The notes beneath the pieces were generated by a model. That model searched no databases and was not told the DNA's origin. It worked only from the letters and a program-made list of their open reading frames with translations. A program made the position numbers and the translations under genes. This document shows positions 6,489 through 23,490 of a DNA stretch of 64,000 nt, piece after piece (position 1 is the stretch's first letter; every line of letters begins with the position of its first letter). Source of the stretch: SAR324 cluster bacterium (GTDB lineage Bacteria > SAR324 > XYD2-FULL-50-16); NCBI GenBank assembly GCA_028282885.1, contig JANQGX010000032.1, forward strand, positions 86,439 to 150,438, written 5' to 3'.

Positions 6489-6849
6489 AGTTGCTCGGTC
6501 AAAGTTTCTTTTAAAACCTTGTAGGTGCTGCCGCCAGGTGGTAATCAAATCAATTATCCAGGCCAGATTACGCAAAAATGCAACTACCTCAGTAACGCAA
6601 TCTCCATTGCGTGTTTCTTCCAAATACAGTTTTTCGGGAAACAGGGAGAAGTTTCCGGGAAGAGATATATTTTTCATTTATGTCCCTCCGAACTATCCGG
6701 CATACTTCTCACGGTTCGGCCGCTTGCAAAAGTGCTCAATTAGATGAATAATTACCGATAAAAGAACAATTGGAAACAAGAGTACACTTTTGCCGGCCGG
6801 TTCGGCACGAGCAAATCTAACCGAATTCAACCCGAATCAAACCACCATC

Positions 6850-8253
6850 ATGTCAGACACCATTTATGATATTGCCGTTATCGGTTCCGGTCCTGCCGGT
6901 GAGAAAGCCGCACTGGAAGCTGCGGGACTGGGAGCCAGTGTAGTTGTTATCGAAAAAGGAATCAGACCGGGGGGAGCTTCGGTTATTACCGGTACTATTC
7001 CCAGCAAGTCGTTGCGGGAGACGGTAAAGCATGTCGAACTCCTTTCCGGTGGCGAGATCAGTGGCATTGATGTCCGTCTTGATCGGAAGCTGACCATACC
7101 GGAGCTGATGAATCACAAAAACAATGTTATCTCCGAGCGGGTGGAGGATATTGTGTCAACCTACGAAAATGCCGGGGTGGATTATGTTTTCGGTAAGGCC
7201 CGCTTTCAAACTCCCCATGAGCTGTTTGTCGACTGTACTGAAAACAGCGAGTCCATGGTCATCAAAGCTGAAAAATTTATCATCGCCGTGGGGACCAATC
7301 CGTACCACCCTGAAGATATCGAATTTGACGGCAAATATATTCTTGATTCGGATACCATTCTGCAGTTGGAAGAGATACCCGAATCGCTTGTCATCATCGG
7401 TGGCGGTGTTATTGGTTGTGAATATGCTTCCATTTTCTGCAGATTGGGCACCAGGGTATCCCTGATTGATCCCAGGGGGGCATTGCTCGATTTCATCGAT
7501 CACGATATTTCCGAAGCCTTGGCAGGTCAAATGAGGGAGGATGGCATCAATCTCTGCCTTGCCTGTAATTACAAGGAAGTAAGAGTGGAAAACGGGTCGG
7601 TTGCTATATACCTGGACGATGGAAATAAGGTCCTGGCTTCTGCCATGCTGTTTGCAAACGGGCGCCAGGGAATGGCAGACGAGTTGAATCTAGACGTATG
7701 CGGGCTGGAGATCAACAGGCGAAATCAACTGGAAGTCAACGACAACTACCAGACCAGGGTTCCCCATATTTATGCCGTCGGAGATGTGATCGGTTTTCCC
7801 TCCCTGGTTTCCGTCAGCAATGAAGAGGGTCGTATGGCCGCCAGAAGTGCGGTATTAGGAGAGCATACCCAAAGGGTTGGATCCAACATCCCTTACGGCA
7901 TTTATACGATTCCCGAGATTTCCATGATCGGTCCTACGGAGAAAGAACTGATCGATCAGGGGGTCTCGTACGGGATTGGAATCTGTCGATTCAAAGACCT
8001 GGCCAGGGGGCTGATCATCGGCGATCGAATCGGGATGGTCAAACTGCTTTTTCACAAGGAAACAAAAGAGCTGCTGGCTGTCCATATGTTTGGTAAAACA
8101 GCATCGGAGCTGGTCCATATTGCCCAGGCCGTGATTCATTACAGGGGTAAGATCGACTATTTCCTGGACAATGTTTTCAATTTTCCCACCCTCTCCTCTT
8201 CCTTCAAGGTCGCCGCCCGGCAGGGATTAATGGAAATTGATCAATCGGATTAA
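6850..8253 (+). CDS. sthA: soluble pyridine nucleotide transhydrogenase
   Basis: Near-collinear similarity to E. coli SthA (IYDIAVIGSGPAGE..., KFIIAVGTNPYHPEDIEFDGKYILDSDTIL..., VIGCEYASIF..., YAVGDVIGFPSL..., IPYGIYTIPEIS...); start reassigned to ATG 6850 by alignment with SthA N-terminus (ORF track gives 6790). Confidence 0.8.
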   Translation: MSDTIYDIAVIGSGPAGEKAALEAAGLGASVVVIEKGIRPGGASVITGTIPSKSLRETVKHVELLSGGEISGIDVRLDRKLTIPELMNHKNNVISERVEDIVSTYENAGVDYVFGKARFQTPHELFVDCTENSESMVIKAEKFIIAVGTNPYHPEDIEFDGKYILDSDTILQLEEIPESLVIIGGGVIGCEYASIFCRLGTRVSLIDPRGALLDFIDHDISEALAGQMREDGINLCLACNYKEVRVENGSVAIYLDDGNKVLASAMLFANGRQGMADELNLDVCGLEINRRNQLEVNDNYQTRVPHIYAVGDVIGFPSLVSVSNEEGRMAARSAVLGEHTQRVGSNIPYGIYTIPEISMIGPTEKELIDQGVSYGIGICRFKDLARGLIIGDRIGMVKLLFHKETKELLAVHMFGKTASELVHIAQAVIHYRGKIDYFLDNVFNFPTLSSSFKVAARQGLMEIDQSD

Positions 8254-9041
8254 CCGGGGATCTCCAAATCGATTCCGACCGGACAGTGGTCGGAGCCGAA
8301 TATGTCATTGTCGATAAAGGCTTCCTTTAACCAGTTTTGTTCGATCAGGTTACGGGTAACAAAGAAATAGTCAATACGCCACCCTGCGTTTGTTTTTCGA
8401 GCGTTAAACCGGTAAGACCACCATGAATACTTGACGGTATCGGGGTAAAGGTGCCGGAAGGTATCCACGTAGCCCTCTTCTATGATCCTGTCCAGCCAGT
8501 CTCTTTCGATGCGTAAAAATCCCGATCGCTTTTCGTTGGATTTTGGGTGTCGCAGATCGATCTCGTTGTGTGCCGTGTTGTAATCACCGGTAATAACCAG
8601 GGGAATGTCCTTCTTTTTGAACTGATCCAGATACTTGAAAAAGGCGTCGTAAAAATCCAGCTTGTACTGCAGGCGCTCATCATCCTTCTGACCGTTGGGG
8701 AAGTAAATATTGTAAAGCCTGAAGTTTTCAAAAACCAGTTCCAGAATCCTCCCTTCCTGGTCGAATTTCTCGATCCCAACTCCGTGATTGACTTCCAGCG
8801 GTTTAATCCTGGAGTAGACGGCTACACCGCTATAACCTTTTTTTACTGTTGAATAGGACCAGTAGGACTCATACCCTTTCATGTTGATCATGGCATCCTC
8901 TCGCTGGTGATCCTGCAGTTTGGTTTCCTGGATGCAGAGCACATCGGCATCCATCTGTTTGACCAGCTTGGGGAAATCTTTTTTCATCACGGCCCTGAGT
9001 CCGTTAACATTCCAGGAAATTATTTTCATATTCCGGCTCAT
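8250..9041 (-). CDS. xth: exodeoxyribonuclease III
   Basis: 263 aa, MKIISWNVNGLRA... N-terminus and Xth/APE1 fold motifs throughout (QETK, GDYN, SDHCPV). Confidence 0.9.
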   Translation of the reverse strand: MSRNMKIISWNVNGLRAVMKKDFPKLVKQMDADVLCIQETKLQDHQREDAMINMKGYESYWSYSTVKKGYSGVAVYSRIKPLEVNHGVGIEKFDQEGRILELVFENFRLYNIYFPNGQKDDERLQYKLDFYDAFFKYLDQFKKKDIPLVITGDYNTAHNEIDLRHPKSNEKRSGFLRIERDWLDRIIEEGYVDTFRHLYPDTVKYSWWSYRFNARKTNAGWRIDYFFVTRNLIEQNWLKEAFIDNDIFGSDHCPVGIDLEIPG

Positions 9042-9047
9042 ATCTTT

Positions 9048-9212
9048 TTACTCCTCATATTTTCTGAATTCTGATTTTGGAAGTCCGCAGGCGGGGCAGA
9101 TCCAATCCTCAGGGAGATCCTCAAATGGGGTACCGGGTTCGATTCCCATATCCGGAATTCCTTCGTCCGGATCGTATGTATAAAAACAGCTGCTGCAGAC
9201 ATATCTCACCAT
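9048..9212 (-). CDS. rubredoxin (54 aa; absent from ORF track because <60 aa)
   Basis: Manual translation of minus strand: [54 protein letters not shown]; two CxxC knuckles with canonical rubredoxin spacing; AGAGG RBS 6 nt upstream; ends 7 nt before xth start. Confidence 0.8.
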
Positions 9213-9268: not shown

Positions 9269-9934
9269 TCATCGCTGCTCACCCGGGGCTAAATCAGAAC
9301 TACTCCCGCGCTCATCCTTCTTCCCGGATCTTACCAGGGTGTGGTATCCGGCAAAGATCCGCAGAATGGTAGTAATCCAGCAGAGAATCGCAAATCCATA
9401 AGCCAAAATCGGAAAATGGGAGGGAAAAAGACAGAACAGAACCATGATGGCGATGGTTTCGGTTCCTTCGGTCAGCCCTTCAAGATAGTAAAGACTTTTC
9501 TGGGGATACACAATACTCTTGATGTCCTGTTTGGCTGCCATAACCGCAAAGGCCAGAAAACTGGTTCCGGTTCCCATGAATGAAACCACAAGGGTGACAG
9601 CCGGAAGCCCGTTAACTTCGGGGTTTGCCAGCGCGAAGCCCCAGACTACCCCTGAATAGAATATAAAATCCAGCGTTATATCCAGAAAACCGCCCGCATC
9701 GGTCACTCCTCTTATTCTGGCCAACGTTCCATCCAGCCCGTCCATGATTCGGTTAATAACTATGGCGACCAACGCCAGTAAATAGCGTTCCTGCCAGAGT
9801 GCCGGTATAGCCAGAATGCCAATCAGAAAGCCGATAACGGAGATCTGGTTGGCGGTAATTCCCGTTTTTTCAACCAGATTCGCTGTTCTTTTGAGGAACG
9901 GCTTAGACCACTCAATTGTCCATCTGTCCAACAT
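9269..9934 (-). CDS. CDP-alcohol phosphatidyltransferase family protein
   Basis: Signature DGLDGTLARIRGVTDAGGFLDITLD (D-G-x2-A-R-x8-G-x3-D-x3-D); multi-TM; start moved to ATG 9934 (AAGGGGG RBS) rather than ORF-track 9994. Confidence 0.75.
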   Translation of the reverse strand: MLDRWTIEWSKPFLKRTANLVEKTGITANQISVIGFLIGILAIPALWQERYLLALVAIVINRIMDGLDGTLARIRGVTDAGGFLDITLDFIFYSGVVWGFALANPEVNGLPAVTLVVSFMGTGTSFLAFAVMAAKQDIKSIVYPQKSLYYLEGLTEGTETIAIMVLFCLFPSHFPILAYGFAILCWITTILRIFAGYHTLVRSGKKDERGSSSDLAPGEQR

Positions 9935-9935
9935 C

Positions 9936-10256
9936 TCAACCCCCTTGATCTGCCAGGTTGATGATCTGTCCGTCAGGACAGTCATAGTGATCATGAAAAA
10001 CCGGCAACACCGGGATATTCATTTCTTTGGTGGTTTCAAAATCGAAGCAATGAATGTGATTCTTAGTCATGGAATCAATAATCGGTTTATGACGCAAACC
10101 ACGACACATCAGCACCAGGATCCTACGTCCAGGCTGACAGGTTCCGTTACAATCGTATCGATTCGCGTCATGCTCATAAACAGCGTTGGCAAGTATCGGG
10201 CCACGAAATAAGAAAAACCGGTGAAAAGATAAACCAACTCCTCTTAATGATATCAC
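9936..10256 (-). CDS. CGGC-domain-like Cys/His-rich small protein (start uncertain)
   Basis: 106-aa ORF with CNGTCQPG and multiple conserved C/H residues resembling the CGGC domain; its stop abuts the downstream start with the RBS embedded (translational coupling), supporting that it is coding; only a GTG start without clear RBS. Confidence 0.4.
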   Translation of the reverse strand: MISLRGVGLSFHRFFLFRGPILANAVYEHDANRYDCNGTCQPGRRILVLMCRGLRHKPIIDSMTKNHIHCFDFETTKEMNIPVLPVFHDHYDCPDGQIINLADQGG

Positions 10257-10470: not shown

Positions 10471-11262
10471 CTATCGTTTGTTGATAAAGGGTTGGATTAA
10501 CAACCAATGCAGGTGGGAATACTTGGGGTTCCTGAAGAGCTCTATACCGATAGCCATGTTTTCATGCCCTTGTTCAGGCTGGTCACGATAAGTGCCAAAT
10601 AACTTATCCCACCAGGAAAGAAAAAATCCATAATTACTATCGGTTTCACGGCGCATGATGGAATGATGAACCCGATGCATATCGGGAGTGACGATAAACA
10701 GGCGAAGTATGCGGTCGATGGCTCCCGGTAATCTGATATTACCGTGGTTGAACATGGCCGAGCTGTTTAGAATCAGTTCAAAAACCAGTACAGCCAGAAC
10801 CGGTGGCCCGAGCACGACAACCACCGACATTTTGACAAACATGGACAGTATAATCTCAATGGGGTGGAAGCGTAGCGCAGTGGTGACATCGAAATCCATG
10901 TCGGTGTGATGCATGCGGTGCAAAAGCCATAATCGAGGCACCATGTGAAAGACCAGGTGCTGAAAATAGATGGTCATATCCAGCAGCAAAACCGATAAAA
11001 TGAAGGCAAGTTCGTAGGGAACCCGGAAATTGTTGAACAATCCCCAGCCTCTTTGTGTAGCCAGGTGTGCCAATCCCACGGCCAAAATGGGAAAAAGCCA
11101 GCGCAACAAAGCGCTGCTGACCACCACAATTCCGAGATTACTGTACCACCTTATAAGTCGTGAAACGGTTGCCTGTCTTCGCGGAAGTAGAAACTCCCAT
11201 ACAGCGATCACAACCAGCGTTCCAAGAAATATGCTTAGGCGGATTGTAAGTTCGTTTTCCAT
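10471..11262 (-). CDS. fatty acid hydroxylase/sterol desaturase family protein
   Basis: Histidine boxes HRMHH and HRVHH in a multi-TM protein; start placed at ATG 11262 (MENELTIRLSIFLG..., GGGGG RBS) instead of ORF-track 11361. Confidence 0.7.
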   Translation of the reverse strand: MENELTIRLSIFLGTLVVIAVWEFLLPRRQATVSRLIRWYSNLGIVVVSSALLRWLFPILAVGLAHLATQRGWGLFNNFRVPYELAFILSVLLLDMTIYFQHLVFHMVPRLWLLHRMHHTDMDFDVTTALRFHPIEIILSMFVKMSVVVVLGPPVLAVLVFELILNSSAMFNHGNIRLPGAIDRILRLFIVTPDMHRVHHSIMRRETDSNYGFFLSWWDKLFGTYRDQPEQGHENMAIGIELFRNPKYSHLHWLLIQPFINKR

Positions 11263-11850
11263 GTTTGCCCCCGAGATCCGATGCCTGATGAGAAGGCGAT
11301 CCTTAATGTTTAATTGGCACTGTTTGCTGCCAAGTATAAGAGAATAATTCGAGGTTGTCATCCGATACTAAAACCCATGGCAACAACTTTATTCCGGATA
11401 ACTTGGACTGCGAAAAATGATCAGTTCAAGAGATACGCTCATAAGGCACAACAGGACTGAAATCCATTTGAGTTGATAGCGAAAATCGGGGTATAATGGG
11501 TAGAAGTAAATCTGAAGAGAAGTTCTTTCGGACCCGGTCCGCTGAGCAACACTTGCTAAAACTCCATGGATATTGCCACGACATCTATTCTGCTGAATCT
11601 CAATGGCGGAACGGACTGAAGGTGGTATCAAACTTGCTGAAAGTGCCCTTTGTGATCAATATAGAAAAATCGGTAAGATGGGGTTGCGAGATAGCATTCG
11701 AGACAACTGGCCCGGATCAGACGTGTTGTTTAAAAAATTAACTCGATTCGATTGATGCGGAGGGAGTTGATCCATATTTGAAAACTCCGGATCGATTCTC
11801 TGGTGAGTTAATAAGTGTCTTCATTCAACCAATAAAGACAGGGGGTAACC

Positions 11851-13992
11851 GTGAACAAACAAAGGGTGCTGAGACTGGGAGTTGTTGTACTGATTATAGG
11901 ATTGATCGGATCCGTTTTCATTTTTGATCTGCAGCAGTATTTTACCCTGGAATATATCAAAAGCAGGCAACAGCTATTCGGCGACTACTACAGGGACAAC
12001 ACGGCATTCACAATCCTGGTGTTTTTGGGGGTTTATGTTATCTCTACTGCCATCTCCATCCCCGGGGCCGCTGTTCTAACCCTGATGGCCGGCGCTCTTT
12101 TTGGCCTCCTCTGGGGAACTGTCATCGTCTCCTTCGCCAGTTCCATCGGGGCAACCCTGGCGTTTATCACCTCCCGCTTTCTTTTGAGGGATTTTGTGCA
12201 AAAGAAGTTCGGGAGCCAGTTGGAAACCATTAACAAAGGGATTCGTAAGGAAGGGGAATACTATCTTTTTACCCTGCGATTGATACCGGTTTTTCCTTTT
12301 TTCCTGATTAATCTCTCTATGGGACTAACACCGATTGGACTGCTCAAGTACTATGTGGTTAGTCAGATCGGAATGCTCCCCGGCACCATTGTTTATGTTT
12401 TCGCCGGAACCCAGTTGGCGAAAGTCGAATCGCTCGGGGGGATTCTGTCACCCGGTCTGATTGCAGCTTTCACCCTTCTGGGACTATTTCCCCTTATCGC
12501 TAAAAAAGGAGTCGCCATGGCTAACTCGCGAAGAGCCCTGAAAAAGTACAAATCTCCCGGGAATTTTGATTATAACGTTGTGGTGATCGGAGCCGGATCC
12601 GGCGGTCTGGTTGCATCGTACATTTCGGCTGCCGTCAAGGCCAAAGTCGTTTTGATCGAGAAGCACAAGATGGGGGGTGATTGCCTGAATACCGGTTGTG
12701 TTCCCAGCAAAGCCCTGATTCGTTCCGCTAAAATGCTATCCTATGCGGAACGGGCAAAGGATTTCGGATTTGAAAAAACCAAGGTGGACTTCGACTTCAA
12801 GACAGTCATGGAGCGGGTAGCCGGGGTGATAAAGAAGGTCGAGCCCCATGATTCCGTTGAACGCTATCAGGATCTTGGCGTGGAGTGTATCACCGGTGAA
12901 GCCGAAATAATCGATCCATATCGTGTCAAGGTAAATGGCAATGTCATTACAACCAAAAACATCGTCGTGGCCAGCGGTGCCTCTCCGTTTGTTCCCCCAA
13001 TTCCGGGTATCGATCAGATGGATTACCTGACCAGTGACACGCTGTGGAACATCAGGGACCTCCCTAAACGTTTGATTATCCTGGGTGGCGGTCCGATCGG
13101 CAGTGAAATGGCTCAGACGTTTGCTCGACTGGGCTCGGAAGTTTCCCAGGTCGAGATGGCGCCTCAAATTCTGATCCGTGAGGATGAAGAGGTCAGTAAT
13201 CTGGTCGCGGAAAAGTTCAGAAAGGAAGGGGTCAAGGTCCTTACCGGGCACCGGGCCAAGGAGTTTCTAAAGGAAGACGGTGAGAAGATCCTGGTTTGTG
13301 AAGCCGAAGGAAAAGATGTCAGGATTCCTTTTGACCAGGTTATCGTAGCAGTCGGTCGCAGGGCGAATACCAAGGGATTCGGACTTGAGGAGCTGGGTGT
13401 TGAAATCGCCAAAAATGGAACCATCTCGCATGATGAGTATCTGAGGACGAATTACCCAAATATCTTCGTTTGTGGCGATGTGGCGGGACCTTATCAATTT
13501 ACCCATACAGCATCCCATCAGGCCTGGTATGCAGCCGTTAATGCTCTCTTTCGACCTTTCAGACAATTCAAGGTGGATTACCGCGTTATTCCCTGGTGTA
13601 CCTTCACTGATCCGGAAGTTGCGCGGGTCGGTTTGAATGAAAAGGAGGCCATGGAAAAGGATATCCCTTATGAAGCCACTGTCTACGGTATCGATGATCT
13701 GGACAGGGCTATCGCTGACAGCGAAGATCACGGATTCATAAAGGTTATAACCCCGCCGGGAAAAGACAAGATACTGGGCGTAACCATTGTTGGTACCCAT
13801 GCGGGCGACCTGATAGCAGAGTTTGTGTTGGCCATGAAGAATGGTCTGGGGCTGGGAAAGATTCTGGGAACCATCCATATCTACCCGACCCTGGGAGAAG
13901 CCAACAAGTATGCGGCTGGTAACTGGCGGAAGAATCACATACCGGAGAGACTGATGAGGTTTCTGGAGAAGTTCCATGCCTGGCGACGATAG
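11851..13992 (+). CDS. bifunctional DedA/TVP38-TMEM64 family membrane protein fused to FAD-dependent pyridine nucleotide-disulfide oxidoreductase
   Basis: 713 aa; N-terminal ~230 aa multi-TM with DedA-like region (...GAAVLTLMAGALFG...), C-terminal ~480 aa with FAD fold YNVVVIGAGSGGLVAS, redox-active disulfide GGDCLNTGCVPSK, NAD fold LIILGGGPIGSEMAQ and dimerisation domain. Confidence 0.8.
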   Translation: MNKQRVLRLGVVVLIIGLIGSVFIFDLQQYFTLEYIKSRQQLFGDYYRDNTAFTILVFLGVYVISTAISIPGAAVLTLMAGALFGLLWGTVIVSFASSIGATLAFITSRFLLRDFVQKKFGSQLETINKGIRKEGEYYLFTLRLIPVFPFFLINLSMGLTPIGLLKYYVVSQIGMLPGTIVYVFAGTQLAKVESLGGILSPGLIAAFTLLGLFPLIAKKGVAMANSRRALKKYKSPGNFDYNVVVIGAGSGGLVASYISAAVKAKVVLIEKHKMGGDCLNTGCVPSKALIRSAKMLSYAERAKDFGFEKTKVDFDFKTVMERVAGVIKKVEPHDSVERYQDLGVECITGEAEIIDPYRVKVNGNVITTKNIVVASGASPFVPPIPGIDQMDYLTSDTLWNIRDLPKRLIILGGGPIGSEMAQTFARLGSEVSQVEMAPQILIREDEEVSNLVAEKFRKEGVKVLTGHRAKEFLKEDGEKILVCEAEGKDVRIPFDQVIVAVGRRANTKGFGLEELGVEIAKNGTISHDEYLRTNYPNIFVCGDVAGPYQFTHTASHQAWYAAVNALFRPFRQFKVDYRVIPWCTFTDPEVARVGLNEKEAMEKDIPYEATVYGIDDLDRAIADSEDHGFIKVITPPGKDKILGVTIVGTHAGDLIAEFVLAMKNGLGLGKILGTIHIYPTLGEANKYAAGNWRKNHIPERLMRFLEKFHAWRR

Positions 13993-14041: not shown

Positions 14042-15502
14042 TTATTCTCCGGAGTCCTTGAACTCCTGCGCTATTTTTTTGAACTCCTCCTCAATAGCCA
14101 GGTAAGCATCCACTACCGCGGGGTCGAAATGGGATCCTTTTCCTTCCCGAATAATCTGACCTGCTTTTTCATGTGAAAAGGCAGGTTTGTAGACCCGTTT
14201 ACTGATCAGGGCGTCATAGACATCCGCCACGGCCATCAGTCTCCCAGCCAGGGGAATATCTTCGCCCTTCAGCCCGTTTGGATAGCCGGAACCATCCCAT
14301 TTTTCATGATGGGTCAGGGCAATCTCCCTGGCCAGTCTCAAAAAGTAATTGCTTCCAAGTCGTTGCTCTGCCACTTCCAGGGAGTCTCCTCCCAGCTTGG
14401 CATGAGTCTGCATGATATCAAACTCATCCTTTTCCAATTTACCGGGTTTCAGCAAAATATGGTCCGGAATACCCACTTTCCCGATATCATGTAATGGAGC
14501 TGATTTAAACAACAGGTCGATGATTTGAGGATTAAGACGATCCTGAAAGGCCGGTTTCTTGTAAAGCTCTTCGGCGAGGATTTTGACGTATCGTTGGGTT
14601 CTGAGAATGTGGTTTCCGGTTTCATTGTCCCGCGTTTCCGCCAGGGAAGCCAGTGTCAGGATGGTTGTATCCTGGGTCTGCTGTAACTCTTCTGTCCGTT
14701 TTTTTAGTCCTTCCACCATGATGTTGGTATGCTTGGCCATGACACCAAACTCATCGTTGCTGCTGATGGGAACAAAGACATCAAAATTACCGTTTGTGGC
14801 TTTTTGCAGAGCAGAGGTTTCCTTCACCAGAAAATTCTGCAGATTACGGGAATAGGAGATCACCAGGTTGAAGACGTGGATCAGAATGGTTGCCGCAACA
14901 AAACCGAATTCGAGCAGAATGGCACGCTGGGCTGTATCAATGCGGATCGCATTGCCTACCTCTGCAAGCCAGTCCAAATCTTTGCTGATAATCAGAAAGA
15001 TAACACCAATGATAAGACAGACACTGATGCTGGCAAAAAAACCAAATTTTTTAGGCTGCGAGAAATAATGGTCATCCGGGGAGATCTGTCTACCTGTTTT
15101 GGCAAAAAACTGGCTCAGATTCCATTCCAGCTCCAGACTCAGATCCGCCGCAGTAAAAAAGCCGATGAGTGCCAACGCGACCAGGTACTTCAATCCACTT
15201 TCCAGGGGAAACCCATAGTAGATCGTGTTAAAAACAGTCAGTATCAACCCGATGGTCAGAAATAAAATCAGCTCCCACTGAAATACCCTTCGGGATTGAA
15301 ACTGGTAAGGGCTTTTGCGGATCAGACGTTTTATTATCCATACCTGGACCAGGAACAGAACAGAGAACAGAACCACTACCGGTACCGCCAATTGCGGAAG
15401 GGTAAGAGTCTCCAGAAAGGGACAAACCTGGCCTCCATAAATAACGATAACCACAATGGCTGCTGCATAATGAATCACTCTTCTGACCATTGAGACTCCC
15501 AT
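14042..15502 (-). CDS. membrane-bound HD-GYP domain c-di-GMP phosphodiesterase
   Basis: N-terminal multi-TM region plus linker; C-terminal HD-GYP (LHDIGKVGIP..., HHEKWDGSGYPNGL..., VADVYDAL). Confidence 0.85.
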   Translation of the reverse strand: MGVSMVRRVIHYAAAIVVIVIYGGQVCPFLETLTLPQLAVPVVVLFSVLFLVQVWIIKRLIRKSPYQFQSRRVFQWELILFLTIGLILTVFNTIYYGFPLESGLKYLVALALIGFFTAADLSLELEWNLSQFFAKTGRQISPDDHYFSQPKKFGFFASISVCLIIGVIFLIISKDLDWLAEVGNAIRIDTAQRAILLEFGFVAATILIHVFNLVISYSRNLQNFLVKETSALQKATNGNFDVFVPISSNDEFGVMAKHTNIMVEGLKKRTEELQQTQDTTILTLASLAETRDNETGNHILRTQRYVKILAEELYKKPAFQDRLNPQIIDLLFKSAPLHDIGKVGIPDHILLKPGKLEKDEFDIMQTHAKLGGDSLEVAEQRLGSNYFLRLAREIALTHHEKWDGSGYPNGLKGEDIPLAGRLMAVADVYDALISKRVYKPAFSHEKAGQIIREGKGSHFDPAVVDAYLAIEEEFKKIAQEFKDSGE

Positions 15503-15724: not shown

Positions 15725-16060
15725 ATGAGCCAATCGGACAGAAAACCCTTTTTCATTGCCTCCCGCAGCGAATTGACTGATGAGCTGATTTCCCTGGCTG
15801 TGGGGGATAAAGAACTGGTCATTGTAAAACACGAAGGAGAAGTATCGGTTTTTAGCGGACTCTGCCTGCATGAGGAGGCCTTGTTGGCTGACGGCTTTCT
15901 GGAGAACGGATTTATCACCTGCGGCAAACACCTCTGGCGTTACAGCCTGGAAAATGGCGAGTTGGACAAGCAACCCGGTGTCGGGATCAAGAAACTGACC
16001 ACCTGGTTTGAAGGCGATGATCTTTACCTGGATCTCAACGAACTGGATGCAATGGACTAG
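15725..16060 (+). CDS. Rieske [2Fe-2S] domain protein (NirD-like small subunit)
   Basis: 111 aa with CLH...CGKH Rieske ligand boxes at typical spacing. Confidence 0.65.
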   Translation: MSQSDRKPFFIASRSELTDELISLAVGDKELVIVKHEGEVSVFSGLCLHEEALLADGFLENGFITCGKHLWRYSLENGELDKQPGVGIKKLTTWFEGDDLYLDLNELDAMD

Positions 16061-16861: not shown

Positions 16862-19207
16862 ATGAAGTCATCAAAGTCGAGTTTGGGATCGGTCTCCGAA
16901 TGGTGGCAAAACAGGATCATCCGTACAAAGATACTGATTGGAATATTTGTGGGTGTATTTCTATTTCAAACCATCAGCACAACCTATCAAATGCAGCAGG
17001 TTGAAAAAGATATACTGGACACCTACAAACAGAATGCTCTCAACCTTTCCGTATCGGTCGATTGCATTATGCTCAAGGATCCCATTCTCTTTTTCAACCT
17101 GCTGGACCGAATCGGCAGAACAGAAGTGGTGGGAATCAAAATTGATGATAACCACCCTTCCTGCGTCGAACGCGACTCCTACCTGAAACGGTTGAAGAGT
17201 GCCTTTCTGGCAGAATTTGAACAGAAAAACCAATCAGACAACCAATCCGAACCTGTTCCGGCTGTTGATGAAGACATCGAGGTGATCAATGAAGAACCAG
17301 TAGAATCAAACCTCCCGGCGGCCACGCTGCTCAGCGGCAACGCTATCGACCTGAATTTCGATCTGGCAAGAGTCGAAGGTCAATTGGAGACAACGGAGAT
17401 CTTCATCAACGGAGAACTGCAACCCCAACTGCTCTATACGGTTAAAGTAAACGGGGTTGAGCTGACCTTCGACCTGACCGATCTGCCGGAACAGAAATTG
17501 AACCGCTTCCTGTTTCTCTTTTTCACCGCCCTGGGAAACCTGCTGGTCCTTTTTATTATCATCTGGCTGCTTAGTGGACGCCTGGTCGATCCGTTGAAGA
17601 AACTAACCCTTTTTGCACAGCATATCATGACCTCCGGAGTCCTTGAATCCGGGGGCGATATCGGACAGGTCAAGATCGAAACCAGGGATGAGATAGGTAT
17701 CCTGGCCAGGGCGATCAACAATATGACGGCAAAAATCCAGCAAAGCTACCGCCAGATCATTAAAAGCAAGGCTGCCATTGGCGATCTGCTGAATAATACC
17801 GGCCAAGGATTTTTCAGCTTCGGACCGGATTACTTGATAGATGAGGAGTATTCCAAAGCCTGTGACCTCTATTTTAAATCTTCTATATCGGGCCTGAATG
17901 CCCTGGAACTGATGGTGCCTGAGAATCTGAAAGAGGTAAAAGAGCTAACCGATCTCCTGTTTGACGGTGTCGGGGATCTCTCCCTGCTGGAAGATCTGCT
18001 GCCACGGGAGATATCTCTTCACCGGAGAATCCTGTCTGTGGAATATCGATTCATTAAGGCTGCCGGAGAAGAGCTGAAGGATAAGATGATGGTCATTCTG
18101 ACCGACATCACCCAGGAGAGAGAGCTTGAACACCAATTACAGAAAGATGAAGCCCTCAACGAACTGGTCATCAAAATAGCCAGGGACAGGGATGGTTTTA
18201 TGCAATTCGTTCAGGACACCAACAAGCTTTTGGGTTCTATGTCAACCGATCTGAAAGATCCGTCAGTGACGATTGACCCGGTAGCGGTTATGCATGACCT
18301 GCACACTGTCAAGGGTATTTCAGCCAGCTACGGCCTGGGCACCGTTGCAGAAACAACCCATCGCATCGAGGACTGGATTCAGGAAACAGGACCCGATGAG
18401 GTCTTTTCCAGCGGGGAGAATATTAAATCACTGGAATCATCCCTGCTTGAGCTGCGGCGAAACCTGAAGGATTCATTGGAGAATGTAAGGGATATCATCA
18501 CCTGGGACGAGATTGTTGGCAGCAAGCAGCGGTATTACAAAGTCAATGAGGAAAAAGTGGTGAGGCTGGAGGCAATGTTCAGCGATACCAAAAAGGTTCG
18601 TCTGAATGAGATTCGACAGGCTCTCTATGAGTTCCGTAAAGAGCCAATTCTGCCGGTTTTCAGGAAGTACGCGGGAACAGCCGAGAAGCTGGCAGAAAAA
18701 CTGGGCAAGCAGATCAAAGTGGAACTGGCAGGCACCGACGTGGAAGTTTTTTACAAACGTCTTGAACCCCTGTTTGATGTATTGGTACATCTGGTGCGAA
18801 ACTCGGTAGATCATGGTTTGGAATCTACTGAAAAACGATTGAAAACGGGGAAACCGGAAACCGGGGTCCTGGAACTGTCGGCCGGCTATCAGGACAATGA
18901 TCTGATCCTTGCGATAGCCGATGACGGTGGCGGTATTGAAACAGCTAAGGTGGTTAAGGCAGCCCTGGAGCGAGGGCTGATAACCGCAGAAGAGGCAGAT
19001 CAACTGGGGCAGGATGATGCCATCAGGTTGTTATTCAAACCCGGATTTTCAACCAGCGAAAGTGTCTCGGATATTTCCGGGCGAGGTATAGGCATGGACG
19101 CTGTAAAGTCCAAGGTTGCGGAACTGGGTGGCTCCATCTCGGTAAAAACCCGGAAAGGCAGAGGCACCACCTTTAGAATCCGGATTCCCGATCACCCATC
19201 GTCATGA
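16862..19207 (+). CDS. membrane sensor kinase with HAMP, Hpt and CheA-type ATPase domains
   Basis: 781 aa: TM - ~170-aa periplasmic region - TM - HAMP; Hpt-like motif HTVKGISASYG; CheA-like N box HLVRNSVDHGLE, G1 DDGGGIE, G2 GRGIGMDAV; no CheW-like or receiver domain. Confidence 0.7.
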   Translation: MKSSKSSLGSVSEWWQNRIIRTKILIGIFVGVFLFQTISTTYQMQQVEKDILDTYKQNALNLSVSVDCIMLKDPILFFNLLDRIGRTEVVGIKIDDNHPSCVERDSYLKRLKSAFLAEFEQKNQSDNQSEPVPAVDEDIEVINEEPVESNLPAATLLSGNAIDLNFDLARVEGQLETTEIFINGELQPQLLYTVKVNGVELTFDLTDLPEQKLNRFLFLFFTALGNLLVLFIIIWLLSGRLVDPLKKLTLFAQHIMTSGVLESGGDIGQVKIETRDEIGILARAINNMTAKIQQSYRQIIKSKAAIGDLLNNTGQGFFSFGPDYLIDEEYSKACDLYFKSSISGLNALELMVPENLKEVKELTDLLFDGVGDLSLLEDLLPREISLHRRILSVEYRFIKAAGEELKDKMMVILTDITQERELEHQLQKDEALNELVIKIARDRDGFMQFVQDTNKLLGSMSTDLKDPSVTIDPVAVMHDLHTVKGISASYGLGTVAETTHRIEDWIQETGPDEVFSSGENIKSLESSLLELRRNLKDSLENVRDIITWDEIVGSKQRYYKVNEEKVVRLEAMFSDTKKVRLNEIRQALYEFRKEPILPVFRKYAGTAEKLAEKLGKQIKVELAGTDVEVFYKRLEPLFDVLVHLVRNSVDHGLESTEKRLKTGKPETGVLELSAGYQDNDLILAIADDGGGIETAKVVKAALERGLITAEEADQLGQDDAIRLLFKPGFSTSESVSDISGRGIGMDAVKSKVAELGGSISVKTRKGRGTTFRIRIPDHPSS

Positions 19208-19333: not shown

Positions 19334-19990
19334 ATGAGACACCTGTTTCAAATTATTGTTATGATACTCTTATTAGGCCCGGCCTTTTCCCCGGAGTCAA
19401 TCGGTGACACCACTGTTCCCGTGGGAACATTCTCCAAAGGAGATATAGAAGGATGGCAAAACAAGAGCTTTGAGGGTGAAACCGATTATCAACTGGTGAC
19501 TGTCGATAACCTCCAGGTTATCAAAGCTGAAAGCCGGCAGACATCTTCCGGCTTTTACAAGGAGATCGAAGTGGACCTGACCAAAACACCCTATCTGAAC
19601 TGGTCATGGCAGACGAATCGTATGCTTGAGGGAAACGATGAAAAAGCCAAATCCGGCGATGACTACGTAGCCAGGATCTATGTGGTGACCAAAACCGGTC
19701 CCTTTTTCTTTAGCCTCAAGGCATTGAACTATGTCTGGAGCTCACATAATCCGGAGGGGAGCGATTGGGCCAATGCTTTTACCTCCAAGGCGTGGATCGT
19801 GACGGTGCGATCCGGAACCGAAAAAACGGGTCAGTGGATTCATGAGAAGCGAGATGTGCGTAAGGATTTTGCCAGGTATTTCGGAACTGATGTGGACTCC
19901 ATAAACGCCGTAGCTATCATGACTGATACGGATAATAGCGGACAAGAGGCAACAGCCCTTTATGGTGATATCTATTTTACTGCCGAGTAA
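19334..19990 (+). CDS. exported hypothetical protein
   Basis: Start placed at ATG 19334 (GGAGGA RBS) giving signal peptide MRHLFQIIVMILLLGPAFS; ~218 aa; possible DUF3047-like, not certain. Confidence 0.5.
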   Translation: MRHLFQIIVMILLLGPAFSPESIGDTTVPVGTFSKGDIEGWQNKSFEGETDYQLVTVDNLQVIKAESRQTSSGFYKEIEVDLTKTPYLNWSWQTNRMLEGNDEKAKSGDDYVARIYVVTKTGPFFFSLKALNYVWSSHNPEGSDWANAFTSKAWIVTVRSGTEKTGQWIHEKRDVRKDFARYFGTDVDSINAVAIMTDTDNSGQEATALYGDIYFTAE

Positions 19991-20296: not shown

Positions 20297-21139
20297 ATGA
20301 AATGGAATAGTATAATAAACAAAGTGGAGACCATCTCCATTGAGGATGCCAAGGCATATTTCAATTCTCACGGCTCCGACGAATACCAACTGGTAGATGT
20401 CCGGCAGCCCGAGGAATACAGCAAACGTCATCTTCCCGGTTCCCTTTTGATCCCTTTGGAAGAATTAATAGAAGGAAAGGGAGGCCTGGACAAGGAAAAA
20501 GCGGTTTTTGTTTACAGCGGAGGCAACAACCGCAGTCTGGCGGCCGGTCAGTGGCTTAATAGTCAGGGCTTTCGGGAGGTACGGTACCTGGAGGGTGGAA
20601 TCTCTTCCTGGTACGGAGAGCTGGCCTTTGGTCATTTCGAACTGAATCTGAATCTCCTGGATCCGAACGTGGAATATGAAGATGCCATCAGCATGGCCTA
20701 CGCCATGGAAGAGGGTCTGCAACAGTTTTACATCATGCTTGCCCGGGAAACGGAAGATGAAGCGTTTAAGAGGCTGTATCGTAAACTGGCTTCATTTGAG
20801 GTGGATCATAAACGCGACCTTTCCAGGATCTATTCCATCTCCCAGGGTAAAGAGATGGTTCAGAAGGAATTTGCCGAACATGACGGCCAGATTCTCGAAG
20901 GGGGCGGCTATGCCGATATCACCTTGATTAAGACCCTGGCTAACACCGAAAGCGCCCGGGACGTGTTTGGCCTTGCTGCCGCGTTTGAAACCCAGGCCAT
21001 GGATTTTTATACAAGGCTGGCGGTGAAAGCGGAAAAACCGGAGGTAAAAAAATTCTTTCTTGAGATGGCCGATGCCGAGAAAAAGCATCTGGCTTTTGTG
21101 GCCAGTGAACTGGACCAATATTTGAAAAAAAATAATTAA
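20297..21139 (+). CDS. rhodanese-domain / rubrerythrin-like (ferritin-like diiron) fusion protein
   Basis: N-terminal rhodanese fold (...VDVRQPEEY..., active-site loop VYSGGNNRS with Ser where the catalytic Cys is expected); C-terminal four-helix domain with two E...ExxH motifs (FEVDH; AEKKH). Confidence 0.7.
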   Translation: MKWNSIINKVETISIEDAKAYFNSHGSDEYQLVDVRQPEEYSKRHLPGSLLIPLEELIEGKGGLDKEKAVFVYSGGNNRSLAAGQWLNSQGFREVRYLEGGISSWYGELAFGHFELNLNLLDPNVEYEDAISMAYAMEEGLQQFYIMLARETEDEAFKRLYRKLASFEVDHKRDLSRIYSISQGKEMVQKEFAEHDGQILEGGGYADITLIKTLANTESARDVFGLAAAFETQAMDFYTRLAVKAEKPEVKKFFLEMADAEKKHLAFVASELDQYLKKNN

Positions 21140-23133: not shown

Positions 23134-23490
23134 ATGAAAAAAGCAACCATCTATCACAATCCCAAGTGAAGCACCAGTAGAAAAGCACTGGCAGTGCTTG
23201 AAGAGAGTGGTGTGGAATTCCGAATCGTTGAATACCTGAAAAACCCACCTTCGGTGGCTGAATTGAAAAAAATAGCCAAAGGGATCGGAGTCGATCCTGT
23301 TGAATTGCTTCGACCAAAAGACAAACGCTTTAAAGAACTGGGATTGTCCAAGAAAGATGACAGGAGCCAGGATGATTGGTTACGCCTGATGAACAAAAAT
23401 CCCAGTATCATTGAACGTCCCATCGTGGCATATGCAGGTAAATATGCCATGGGAAGACCGCCGGAAAGCATTTGGGAAATTCTGAACTGA
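23134..23490 (+). CDS. arsC: ArsC-family arsenate reductase/thiol-disulfide protein with in-frame TGA (putative selenocysteine) at the catalytic-Cys position
   Basis: ATG 23134...MKKATIYHNPK-TGA(23167-23169)-STSRKALAVLEESGVEFRIVEYLKNPPS... matches E. coli ArsC TIYHNPACGTSRNTLEMI...YLENPPS...; TGA aligns with Cys12; same frame as ORF-track 23194..23490; 7-bp stem-loop 23183..23199 lies 13 nt after TGA (SECIS-like). Confidence 0.65.

Follow-up and report, generated by a model that had tools for sequence, protein, structure and literature searches.

DedA proteins are near-universal and are actively studied as transporters of lipids and lipid carriers; for the COG0398 branch of the family we know of no substrate in bacteria and of no scramblase assay on a bacterial member. 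The eukaryotic lipid scramblases TMEM41B, VMP1 and Tvp38 share the VTT/DedA domain (PF09335) with the protein described here, have COG0398 as their nearest bacterial subfamily and, like it, lack acidic residues in the re-entrant loops; unlike our protein, they have no flavoprotein domain. Precedents for an enzyme joined to a DedA domain exist in the DedA-PAP2 and DedA-rhodanese fusions, which belong to another DedA subfamily (COG0586), and the plant class IV glutaredoxins (Grx-DEP-DUF547) combine a thiol-redox enzyme, of another kind, with a membrane-targeting module and DUF547. To the best of our knowledge, no mechanism that would carry over to the present protein has been demonstrated for any of these. 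A DedA domain fused to a flavoprotein reductase is already known and not a novelty, being the commonest COG0398 DedA fusion in a 2023 mBio survey (PMC10127716). In the literature searched, we found no published function or experiments for this fusion, nor for YnjF, YdjX/YdjZ or the bacterial DUF547 and DUF3047 proteins. When an enzyme is covalently joined to a DedA transporter, it gives a strong hint of the cargo. New here are a DedA part that looks YdjX/YdjZ-like, a reductase that belongs to a distinct clade, and two operon modules that alternate beside the fusion.

The fusion gene lies on the plus strand of a 64-kb stretch of DNA, referred to below as the window.

11851..13992, plus strand: fusion gene, 713 aa, stop codon counted in (ORF call, domain hits, homologues)
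11840..11845, plus strand: AGGGGG, Shine-Dalgarno-like, 5 nt before the GTG start (sequence read directly)

The frame opens with GTG, a start that is supported by the 713-aa homologues, which span 100% of the query. A sequence-only reading of the window had proposed that a single 713-aa ORF combines a DedA domain with a disulfide oxidoreductase; the ORF call and Pfam confirm this, and the domain search that it suggested finds VTT/DedA, Pyr_redox_2 and Pyr_redox_dim. Another of its suggestions, a look at the distribution of the fusion, reveals a widespread protein with >8000 homologues and recurrent neighbours across 85 loci. The best 120 of these homologues are all ∼713 aa long and all carry the three Pfam domains. 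The DedA-to-reductase order occurs in 74 of the best 150 cluster representatives at 50% identity, and the reverse order in 2 of the same 150, in independent clusters. In one relative (L099) the halves are separate genes that overlap by an ATGA start/stop and are followed by a DUF547 gene. That split directly follows a poly-A stretch; indels can therefore occur at the fusion junction, and this is the one observation in favour of the frameshift that the sequence-only reading had named as its possible undoing, i.e., two genes joined by a sequencing or assembly error. Such an artefact has virtually no chance of being the explanation: the identical 713-aa ORF is present in two independent assemblies, on contigs of separate runs (SRR20820739 and SRR20820740), and thousands of full-length homologues with 35–81% identity keep both the junction and the length unchanged. 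We conclude that the fusion is a real, widely conserved gene and no frameshift artefact. Its AlphaFold2 model is graded confident (pLDDT 90.8, pTM 0.78).

The membrane part and its connection to the reductase occupy the first third of the protein.

11851..12546, plus strand: YdjX/YdjZ-type (COG0398, TVP38/TMEM64-like) DedA domain, residues 1-232 (Pfam, YdjX identity)
12502..12570, plus strand: basic linker KKGVAMANSRRALKKYKSPGNFD, residues 218-240, from the last transmembrane helix to the reductase (sequence)

The proposed DedA-family membrane domain is borne out by a match to VTT_dom/DedA (PF09335) over residues 74-187 (nt 12070-12411) with 76.2 bits (cut-off 33.9). Along its whole length (237 aa) this half shows 31% identity to E. 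coli YdjX (3e-23). In the AlphaFold2 model the helices break at residues 68-72, 145-149 and 158-163, which suggests two re-entrant hairpins that turn at conserved Pro/Gly residues and are flanked by transmembrane helices. P71, G81 and R143 are invariant in the fusions, with R143 present in 47/47 family members, and conservation reaches 90% or more at P146, P149, F150 and N154. No conserved membrane Asp or Glu was found in the DedA half among the 47 family members. According to PMC10127716, the acidic residues found in the PMF-driven UndP flippases are missing from COG0398 proteins, which resemble scramblases; judged by this acidic-residue criterion and by the identity to YdjX, the DedA half appears to be COG0398 YdjX/YdjZ-like and to stand apart from the YqjA type. 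Hydropathy and charge place clusters of basic residues in the N terminus, the 109-136 loop and the 218-235 linker, and the seven Lys/Arg residues of the linker would, by the positive-inside rule, put the linker and the reductase on the cytoplasmic side. The DedA half probably has four transmembrane helices and two re-entrant hairpins, with both termini cytoplasmic.

The remainder of the protein is a flavoprotein reductase with a modified active site.

12571..13524, plus strand: FAD/NAD(P)H-binding domains, Pyr_redox_2 (PF07992), residues 241-558 (Pfam, 228 bits)
12589-12606, plus strand: GAGSGG, FAD site (sequence motif)
12682..12699, plus strand: CLNTGC, redox-active disulfide, Cys278/Cys283, residues 278-283 (sequence motif)
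13084-13101, plus strand: GGGPIG, NAD site (sequence motif)
13588..13914, plus strand: dimerisation/interface domain, Pyr_redox_dim (PF02852), residues 580-688 (Pfam, 103 bits)
13882..13899, plus strand: YPTLGE, with Tyr678 at the catalytic-His position and Glu683 retained (alignments to 5x1y, 1ebd and RclA)
13915..13989, plus strand: C-terminal extension AGNWRKNHIPERLMRFLEKFHAWRR, conserved, basic and amphipathic, two short helices (alignment, model)

This half has the features of a class I flavoprotein disulfide reductase, namely the Rossmann motifs, the CxxxxC pair and the dimerisation domain, and Foldseek on the model gives a TM-score of ∼0.9 to lipoamide dehydrogenases and MerA. The CLNTGC pair noticed in the sequence-only reading is indeed at residues 278-283, and both cysteines are kept in 44/47 diverse family members; the other 3/47 have lost one or both, and two of these (P0141 and P0156) have neither. 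The description of the enzyme as a complete class-I oxidoreductase holds for the fold and the cofactor motifs and fails at the His-Glu dyad of lipoamide dehydrogenase (E3) and glutathione reductase (GR), whose His is replaced by Tyr678. This Tyr, found in 44/47 members, aligns with a Tyr in MerA 5x1y and with the His of lipoamide dehydrogenase 1ebd, and RclA also has a His there; the Glu683 position is Glu in 38/47. The NAD beta-2 strand ends in Glu or Asp in 34/47 members, at an acidic position that E. coli lipoamide dehydrogenase presumably uses for NADH, and the reductase is probably NADH-preferring. The C-terminal tail, which ends ...FLEKFHAWRR, contains no Cys; stand-alone relatives and reductases of the NF004991 type have it as well. 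That uncharacterised family (PRK06370.1-3) gives the best NCBIfam score, 505.8 bits, which is under its cut-off of 620; the match reaches the last residue of the tail, and the YPT motif and the tail are common to its stand-alone members. On these alignments the reductase is not a standard class-I disulfide reductase and belongs instead to a distinct clade, with a Cys pair and a Tyr, a conserved basic tail and none of the C-terminal Cys pair of MerA. The same clade reaches the membrane by unrelated means in other proteins, through a single transmembrane anchor (P0181) or a DEP domain (P0236, P0262).

The genes around the fusion were said in the sequence-only reading to include a divergent sterol-desaturase-family gene and a CDP-alcohol phosphatidyltransferase, and both are there.

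10471..11361, minus strand: fatty-acid-hydroxylase/sterol-desaturase superfamily (PF04116), membrane di-iron enzyme, divergent from the fusion (Pfam)
9939..10219, minus strand: remnants of a ynjC-like permease (aa 499-559) and a ynjD-like ATPase (aa 132-210) (tblastn against the L004 genes)
9269..9934, minus strand: YnjF orthologue, CDP-alcohol phosphatidyltransferase (homology); the longest ORF starts at 9994 (9269-9994)
9048-9212, minus strand: rubredoxin gene, in the same minus-strand block as the hydroxylase (gene call)
19334..19990, plus strand: DUF3047 protein with a signal-peptide-like N terminus, 5.3 kb downstream of the fusion

The YnjF orthologue is 53.5% identical to E. coli YnjF (1e-67) and its catalytic motif DxxDGxxAR...G...D...D is complete; the hydroxylase has all of its His boxes, i.e., the full 8-His motif. 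With both motifs intact and both genes recurring beside fusion orthologues elsewhere, the suggestion of a lipid-related neighbourhood is upheld. The neighbourhood is of the ydjX-ynjBCD-ynjF type with a degenerate ABC part, and the ynjC and ynjD remnants are best read, from the tblastn matches, as the deletion scar of an ABC importer that is intact beside the fusion in two relatives (L004 and L100), where the ynj arrangement is preserved. DUF3047 lies directly downstream of the fusion in many relatives. The window thus holds a reduced ynj-type version: ynjF, the hydroxylase, DUF3047 and the ynjC/ynjD remnants. Searches at 1e-4 found no ArsS, ArsM, TIGR04282/4283 or DUF547 genes in the 64-kb window. 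The sole arsenic-type gene near the fusion in the window is an ORF of the ArsC/Spx family 9 kb away. Genes typical of anaerobes are also present in this organism.

We then counted neighbours at 85 non-redundant loci of fusion orthologues. Partner genes abut or overlap on one strand in tight operons, and two modules recur. The first consists of arsenosugar genes (ArsS, TIGR04282, TIGR04283 or ArsM-like), which share operons with the fusion in 23/85 loci, ArsS being identified by TIGR04167 (450 bits, cut-off 300). The second is the E. coli-type ynj module of an ABC importer (ynjBCD) and a CDP-alcohol phosphatidyltransferase (ynjF), with ynjB/C/F genes by the fusion in 14/85 loci and a YnjF neighbour in 14/85. 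The modules never co-occur (0 of 85 loci) and alternate among close relatives on the tree. DUF547 or DUF3047 is found in 32/85 loci (DUF3047 in 17/85), and the PF04116 hydroxylase adjoins the fusion in 6/85, in operons of both the ynj and the ArsS type. About 35% of the 85 loci have no recurrent partner within 8 kb. The arsenic link belongs to the family, by way of orthologues elsewhere, and not to the window locus.

Our preferred reading, to which we give a probability of about 40%, is that the fusion works as an NADH reductase held at the membrane, with a lipid-linked or membrane-embedded substrate that we infer to be handled by the DedA domain. The DedA third would be an inner-membrane domain whose two ends are cytoplasmic, and the basic linker would hold the reductase two thirds against the cytoplasmic face. 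The reductase would be a dimeric FAD enzyme in which electrons pass from NADH to FAD to Cys278/Cys283, with an active site like that of the MerA core, made up of the Cys pair and a Tyr678 contributed by the partner subunit. Lipoamide, glutathione and Hg(II) are unlikely substrates because the enzyme lacks both the C-terminal Cys pair of MerA and the His base of E3; it may instead reduce a soft or hydrophobic molecule offered to it at the membrane. We propose that the reductase half reduces, or keeps reduced, the head group of a specialised lipid or amphiphile that the DedA half binds, exposes or flips. In the window, the lipid could be the product of the divergent operon, made by YnjF and the di-iron lipid hydroxylase. 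A head group bearing As, S or Se is the leading candidate, since orthologues sit in ArsS/ArsM-like arsenosugar operons. The occurrence of both fusion orders, the split form and the retained DedA motif residues support functional coupling of the two halves, and the conservation of catalytic residues together with the biosynthetic operons fits a catalytic reductase that works with a transporter better than it fits a regulator, although the sequence-only reading had drawn from the fusion a redox control exerted on or by a membrane process. Against our reading stand the reduced state of the window locus, where the ABC importer is deleted and arsenosugar and DUF547 genes are absent, the ∼35% of loci that have no recurrent partner, the oxidative-stress genes around the fusion in Desulfobacterota-like relatives, and the 3/47 members that have lost one or both cysteines.

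Several other explanations account for part of these data. Homologues are named dihydrolipoyl dehydrogenase or mercury(II) reductase in the source databases, and a membrane-anchored version of either enzyme would agree with the best PDB sequence matches of the reductase (MerA and E3), a marginal pass of TIGR01350 lipoamide_DH (413.6 bits, cut-off 408.8) and a TIGR02053 score of 398 bits. The latter, however, is below the MerA cut-off of 454.45, among NCBIfam models the uncharacterised NF004991 family scores best, and the protein has no NmerA/HMA domain, no C-terminal Cys-Cys and no Cys in its membrane domain. Genes for 2-oxoacid dehydrogenase E1/E2 or glycine cleavage are absent from the genes called between 1851 and 23992 and do not recur in the 85 loci, and mer genes (merR/T/P) were not found among neighbours in the window or in those loci. 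We rejected E3 identity on the missing His-Glu dyad (YPTLGE in place of HPTxxE) and the lack of E1/E2 or glycine-cleavage genes nearby, and MerA identity on the sub-cut-off score, the missing C-terminal Cys pair and NmerA, and the absence of a mer operon. Either identity has very little chance of being right, and the database names are probably wrong because of the Tyr, the missing Cys pair and the basic tail of the clade. Distinctly improbable, too, is a role as electron donor, in which NADH would reduce the flavoprotein, the rubredoxin (9048-9212) and then the hydroxylase (10471-11361), as in AlkT/AlkG/AlkB. The hydroxylase needs electrons, its gene is the divergent neighbour of the fusion both in the window and in the closest lineages (P0016, P0008), and the rubredoxin gene is part of the same minus-strand block, but the hydroxylase adjoins the fusion at only 6/85 loci, the DedA half is left without a role, and the conserved Cys pair and Tyr would be superfluous in a rubredoxin reductase; the known rubredoxin reductases form a different, disulfide-less branch.

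A general defence reductase also fits, since oxidative-stress genes surround the fusion in Desulfobacterota-like relatives, where rubrerythrin, AhpC, rubredoxin and ferritin genes are abundant. The enzyme would then work at the membrane surface in the manner of RclA/RclC on a diffusible or membrane oxidant (a quinone, lipid hydroperoxide, hypothiocyanite/hypochlorite-type species or Cu(II)), with DedA mainly as an anchor. Across the window and close relatives, the genes around the fusion include rubredoxin, rubrerythrin, rhodanese-rubrerythrin, ferritin, AhpC, hybrid-cluster protein and nitroreductase; E. coli rclA shares an operon with the membrane protein RclC; and plain tethering can suffice, because the same clade is membrane-bound through a single transmembrane helix or DEP. 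We nevertheless doubt this explanation. The DedA signature is kept strictly in the fusions, down to R143 in every member, and the domain persists in the reverse-order and split forms, which is more than a mere anchor needs, while the tight operons are those of biosynthesis and transport (ArsS/glycosyltransferases, YnjBCD-YnjF) and not of stress. An identity of the RclA or hypothiocyanite-reductase type was itself rejected, with NF040477 at 215.5 bits (cut-off 740), NF041853 at 228.8 (cut-off 650), and the RclA His replaced by Tyr678. Clearly less plausible is a route for metalloids with no lipid involved, in which the reductase would reduce, on the cytoplasmic side, the selenite, tellurite or methylated arsenate that DedA imports or exports, giving for example the trivalent dimethylarsenic used by ArsS. 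The MerA-like Cys pair and Tyr, the ArsS and ArsM-like genes in the 23 arsenosugar loci and the occurrence of the fusion in Sedimenticola selenatireducens agree with such a route. Against it, COG0398 DedA proteins lack the acidic residues tied to ion-coupled transport (PMC10127716) and the fusions conserve none; such a route does not account for the window's own partners, a CDP-alcohol phosphatidyltransferase and a lipid hydroxylase; and the window has no adjacent arsenic genes save the distant ArsC/Spx-family ORF.

A lipid-linked substrate handled by DedA is the reading that we carry further, in a tentative form that we regard as rather unlikely: the fusion may supply a missing redox and translocation step in a bacterial pathway to an unusual membrane lipid with an As, Se or S head group, an arsenosugar phospholipid being one example. 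ArsS, ArsM-like and TIGR04282/4283 proteins would produce the head group inside the cell, unless YnjBCD imports it; its attachment to CDP-diacylglycerol would fall to YnjF, and modification of the lipid to the PF04116 hydroxylase. The fusion would then reduce the lipid and hand it on, at the other face of the membrane, to DUF547 and DUF3047 proteins of the periplasm. If the proposal is true, the orphan E. coli ydjXYZ-ynjABCDEF genes would be an unfused version of the same system, bacterial COG0398 DedA proteins would gain a first defined substrate class, and the arsenic-lipid link would provide enzymes that are still missing from bacterial arsenolipid synthesis; should that link prove false, the gene is just another representative of a common, uncharacterised family. 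The recurring special-phospholipid and arsenosugar genes are a testable lead on function, one that can be addressed directly in E. coli and cultured marine bacteria.

Among characterised enzymes, the MerA core resembles the fusion in its active site, with the same fold, a CxxxxC pair and a Tyr at the E3/GR His position, and MerA 5x1y is the best PDB sequence match (1e-76); the fusion adds the basic C-terminal tail and the membrane domain. E3 is ∼35% identical and has the domains, the Cys pair and the Glu at the end of NAD beta-2 in common with the fusion, but it has a catalytic His in place of the Tyr and is not membrane-tethered. In RclA-RclB-RclC, a class-I-type flavoprotein with CxxxxC and no C-terminal Cys pair again works alongside an inner-membrane protein; RclA, however, is only 27% identical to the fusion, keeps its His and is unfused, and its membrane partner RclC is a DUF417 protein and not a DedA. 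For the locus as a whole, the counterpart is in E. coli K-12, where ydjXYZ-ynjABCD forms an FNR-activated operon (PMC3688515); we found no functional study of ydjX-ynjF in the literature searched. The order xthA-ydjX-ydjY-ydjZ-ynjA-ynjB-ynjC-ynjD-ynjE-ynjF is the unfused equivalent of the ynj-type locus, and its YnjB, YnjC and YnjD are 50%, 36% and 49% identical to the proteins in the operons of fusion relatives. By comparison, ynjB and the greater part of ynjC and ynjD are gone from the window, and E. coli has, instead of a fused reductase, the small redox proteins YdjY (ferredoxin-type), YnjA (AhpD-like) and YnjE (rhodanese).

The gene at 11851-13992 encodes, as the sequence-only reading had proposed, one 713-aa protein in which a DedA-family membrane domain is followed by a class-I flavin disulfide reductase carrying a CLNTGC redox pair; a Pfam domain search and the sequence motifs agree on this. 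The start codon is GTG, with AGGGGG five bases upstream, and both the FAD motif GAGSGG and the NAD motif GGGPIG are found.

Features of the fusion gene
11851-13992, + strand: DedA-reductase fusion, a single ORF of 713 aa
residues 74-187: VTT/DedA domain (Pfam, 76 bits against a cut-off of 33.9)
residues 241-558: Pyr_redox_2 (Pfam, 228 bits)
residues 580-688: Pyr_redox_dim (Pfam, 103 bits)
12682-12699, + strand: redox pair CLNTGC, residues 278-283, read from the fusion sequence

A frameshift that artefactually joined two genes can be eliminated because the identical ORF occurs on contigs of two separate sequencing runs. The homologues agree: the best 120 of more than 8000 are about 713 aa long with all three domains, and in a species-level scan (one genome per species, at least 600 matches) the best 80 span nearly the whole query. 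Carriers among these 80 are spread over the Gamma-, Beta- and Alphaproteobacteria, Desulfobacterota and Bdellovibrionota, with cultured examples in Sedimenticola, Nitrococcus, Grimontia, Photobacterium, Marinomonas and Limnobacter. Among named relatives of the protein, the closest (78% identity) comes from a SAR324 MAG. The architecture itself is already known as the commonest COG0398 fusion (PMC10127716, mBio 2023), and the family is abundant. That mention is the sole record we found in the literature, which yielded no functional study of the fusion, and its members are uncharacterised.

The DedA and reductase halves belong with each other. Of the best 150 representatives of 50%-identity clusters, checked with Pfam, 74 have the DedA-reductase order, two independent fusions (P0192 and P0201) have the reverse order, and the rest are reductases that lack a DedA domain. 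One of the apparent stand-alone reductases, P0139, has a YdjX-like DedA coding region immediately 5' on every contig found. A split form at another locus (L099, 5267-8381) consists of a 245-aa DedA gene and a 491-aa reductase gene that share an ATGA overlap (TGA over ATG), with an overlapping DUF547 gene 3' of both; a poly-A run lies just 5' of the junction, and a sequencing indel is possible in that contig. When 47 diverse fusions are aligned, P71, G81 and R143 of the DedA domain never vary, and conservation reaches at least 90% at P146, P149, F150 and N154, which is more than would be expected of a mere anchor.

The fold of the reductase half resembles lipoamide dehydrogenases and mercuric reductase (MerA) with TM-scores of about 0.9, and its top PDB sequence matches are MerA (5x1y) and dihydrolipoyl dehydrogenase (E3; 1ebd). 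The top NCBIfam model is the uncharacterised NF004991, which scores 506 bits, short of its 620 cut-off; the lipoamide dehydrogenase model TIGR01350 is passed marginally (413.6 against 408.8) and the MerA model is failed (398 against 454), which accounts for the mixed database names of the homologues. The fusion has YPTLGE at the site of HPTLGE in E3 and HPSMSE in RclA, an E. coli flavoprotein reductase, and its Tyr678 aligns with a Tyr of MerA. Cys278/283 and Tyr678 are each retained in 44 of the 47 fusions and Glu683 in 38, and this predicted active site is diagnostic. Neither the MerA-type C-terminal Cys pair nor an NmerA domain is present in the fusion by sequence or Pfam; the C terminus is instead a conserved tail, basic and amphipathic, whose last residues are HxWRR. 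The equivalent Tyr and the tail are also retained in stand-alone relatives and reverse-order fusions, and a distinct Cys-pair-plus-Tyr reductase clade is one lead to come from this work. Members of the clade reach membranes by other routes too, through a single N-terminal transmembrane helix (P0181) or an N-terminal DEP domain (P0236 and P0262). Glu or Asp ends the NAD beta-2 strand in 34 of 47 fusions, a position that is acidic in E. coli E3 as well, and this residue suggests a preference for NADH. Another Pyr_redox_2 protein is encoded 3.6 kb upstream of the fusion, at 6790-8253 (+). It is SthA, the soluble NAD(P) transhydrogenase (563 bits, above cut-off); it has no redox Cys pair and is no paralogue of the clade.

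The DedA half is 31% identical to E. coli YdjX over its whole length and 35% identical to YdjZ over 129 residues (BLAST), which assigns it to the COG0398 subfamily, whose eukaryotic relatives include TMEM41B, TMEM64 and Tvp38. Across the 47-member alignment the membrane part has no conserved acidic residue, a lack that this subfamily shares (PMC10127716). The same alignment has no conserved cysteine in the DedA half, which eliminates a DsbD-like thiol relay across the membrane. In the AlphaFold2 model (pLDDT 90.8, pTM 0.78), helices break at 68-72, 145-149 and 158-163, the expected sites of re-entrant hairpins. The N terminus, loop 109-136 and the linker KKGVAMANSRRALKKYK each hold a cluster of basic residues. 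From these clusters and the positive-inside rule, we infer four membrane crossings and two hairpins with both termini cytoplasmic, which would place the whole reductase half in the cytoplasm, in agreement with its requirement for FAD and NAD(P)H.

The genes around the fusion bear out a divergent sterol-desaturase-family gene and a nearby CDP-alcohol phosphatidyltransferase, which correspond to the hydroxylase and ynjF of a minus-strand block.

Features flanking the fusion
8250-9041, - strand: exodeoxyribonuclease III (xth)
9048-9212, - strand: rubredoxin, 54 aa, two CxxC motifs, between xth and ynjF
homology from 9934, - strand: ynjF, complete DxxDGxxAR...G...D...D motif
9939-10219, - strand: remnants of ynjC (aa 499-559, permease-like) and ynjD (aa 132-210, ATPase-like)
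10471-11361, - strand: PF04116 hydroxylase, divergent from the fusion, complete 8-His motif
14042-15502, - strand: MASE10-HD-GYP-type phosphodiesterase, convergent with the fusion
15725-16060, + strand: small Rieske ferredoxin
16862-19207, + strand: HAMP-Hpt-HATPase kinase
19334-19990: DUF3047, 5.3 kb downstream of the fusion

The ynjC and ynjD fragments sit between the hydroxylase and ynjF, where two relatives (L004 and L100) have intact ynjB-ynjC-ynjD, and the interval 9939-10219 is a deletion scar of the importer genes. Close relatives (75-77% identity) keep an intact ynjBCD-ynjF operon and have DUF547 immediately 3' of the fusion; the window lineage has lost both the importer and DUF547. 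Where closer relatives have DUF547, the phosphodiesterase, Rieske ferredoxin and kinase here stand between the fusion and DUF3047. No ArsS, ArsM, TIGR04282/4283 or DUF547 gene occurs within the 64-kb window. Genes for rubrerythrin, ferritin, pyruvate:ferredoxin oxidoreductase and rubredoxin indicate an anaerobe. An unusual redox fusion of rhodanese and rubrerythrin (280 aa, 20297-21139, +), conserved in a relative's locus (L008, 16139-17014), adjoins rubrerythrin, ferritin and an ArsC/Spx-family ORF (23194-23490). The 489-bp divergent intergenic region yielded no Rfam match, inverted repeat, terminator-like site or block conserved with two relatives, and its promoter-like matches were no more frequent than in shuffles. 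GC content is 0.538 at 60001-62000 against a window average of about 0.47.

At 89 loci, 85 of them non-redundant, we grouped every ORF lying up to 8 kb from the fusion into clusters and named the recurrent ones by Pfam and NCBIfam.

Recurrent neighbours among the 85 loci
DUF547: 20, usually the next gene downstream, same strand, often overlapping
DUF3047: 17
ArsS radical-SAM (TIGR04167): 16, 450 bits against a cut-off of 300
YnjF-type CDP-alcohol phosphatidyltransferase: 14
TIGR03169-like flavoprotein: 13
TIGR04282 "arsenosugar glycosyltransferase": 12
YnjB / YnjC: 10-11
TIGR04283: 9
ArsM-like methyltransferase: 7, below NCBIfam cut-offs
PF04116 hydroxylase: 6

These genes form tight arrays on one strand. 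The order is ArsS-fusion-TIGR04283-TIGR04282 at L018, L022, L072 and L078, fusion-DUF547-YnjB-YnjC-YnjD-YnjF-hydroxylase in Salinimonas (L083) and Pseudocolwellia (L086), and YnjBCD-YnjF-fusion-DUF3047 at L056, L062 and L080. At least one arsenosugar gene is present at 23 of the 85 loci and a ynj gene at 14, with no locus of the 85 holding both. In a neighbour-joining tree built from the fusion proteins, loci of the two kinds are interspersed, so the same orthologue alternates between two partner modules. The hydroxylase accompanies either one (L078 of the ArsS type; L083 and L086 of the ynj type). Our literature search found nothing that combines arsenosugars or ArsS with DedA, and the link to arsenosugar genes, also a lead from this work, is apparently unreported. 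ArsS-type operons also contain a 326-aa protein that matches nothing in Pfam or NCBIfam (cluster c27, e.g., L042 8532-9509; also L021, L023, L025, L046, L051 and L079) and a 460-aa membrane protein weakly resembling sodium:solute symporters (cluster c34, e.g., L072 4746-6125).

The DUF547 and DUF3047 proteins have signal-peptide-like N termini and are predicted periplasmic partners. DUF547 carries an invariant H...C-A-S-x-G-C-P motif (CX4C), with FDHxH immediately after the signal-peptide-like sequence; its predicted structure (pLDDT 93.7) gave no informative PDB match.

The best-supported account is that the fusion would be a dimeric reductase held at the membrane, passing electrons from NADH through FAD and Cys278/283 to a substrate at the membrane surface, which the DedA half may bind or move. 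What the data show directly is the architecture, the conservation and the gene associations; we infer the substrate and transport direction, as we do the NADH preference. The operon partners point to the kind of substrate: YnjF, with the importer, would join a head-group alcohol to phospholipid, the other module would make arsenosugars, a lipid hydroxylase is common to both, and exported proteins are encoded directly downstream. Each of these partners is compatible with a specialised lipid whose head group contains As, S or Se and can be reduced. As an account of function, this arsenolipid or special-lipid reading is tentative, with a probability of roughly one in five.

Four alternatives stay beside it. 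The fusion may be a general defence reductase at the membrane surface, in keeping with the stress genes nearby, or may couple transport to metalloid reduction, for which a DedA-selenite precedent exists. It may also donate electrons to the adjacent hydroxylase via rubredoxin, and the 9048-9212 protein could be the electron carrier of the di-iron hydroxylase in its block. The annotated E3 or MerA function is likewise retained as an alternative, but it fails the tests for the defining features of these enzymes.

The fusion system has a close known counterpart in E. coli, whose two COG0398 genes adjoin ynj genes; the annotated K-12 record gives the order xthA-ydjX-ydjY-ydjZ-ynjA-ynjB-ynjC-ynjD-ynjE-ynjF. 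The neighbour clusters are orthologues of E. coli YnjB (50% identity), YnjC (36%), YnjD (49%) and YnjF (59%) by BLAST, and the YnjF protein of the window is 53.5% identical to that of E. coli. We found no functional study of these genes in the literature; PMC3688515 lists ydjXYZ-ynjABCD among FNR-activated operons. An xth gene adjoins the DedA/ynjF block both in the window (8250-9041, -) and in E. coli (L089, 3429-4235, xthA beside ydjX); we take this as probably coincidence because, among the 85 loci, it is seen in the window lineage alone. E. coli differs in that its DedA genes have no fused reductase; they are instead co-transcribed with the small redox proteins YdjY (ferredoxin-type) and YnjA (AhpD-like), and the rhodanese YnjE adjoins the operon. 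Equivalence of the fusion system with this orphan locus is another lead. A further parallel comes from plants, where a single protein combines glutaredoxin, DEP and DUF547 domains (class IV glutaredoxins, Grx-DEP-DUF547; PMC13621322), much as the bacterial set combines reductase, membrane module and DUF547. By this analogy and from the DEP-reductase fusions P0236 and P0262, DUF547 appears to recur across kingdoms together with a thiol-redox enzyme and a module that targets membranes.
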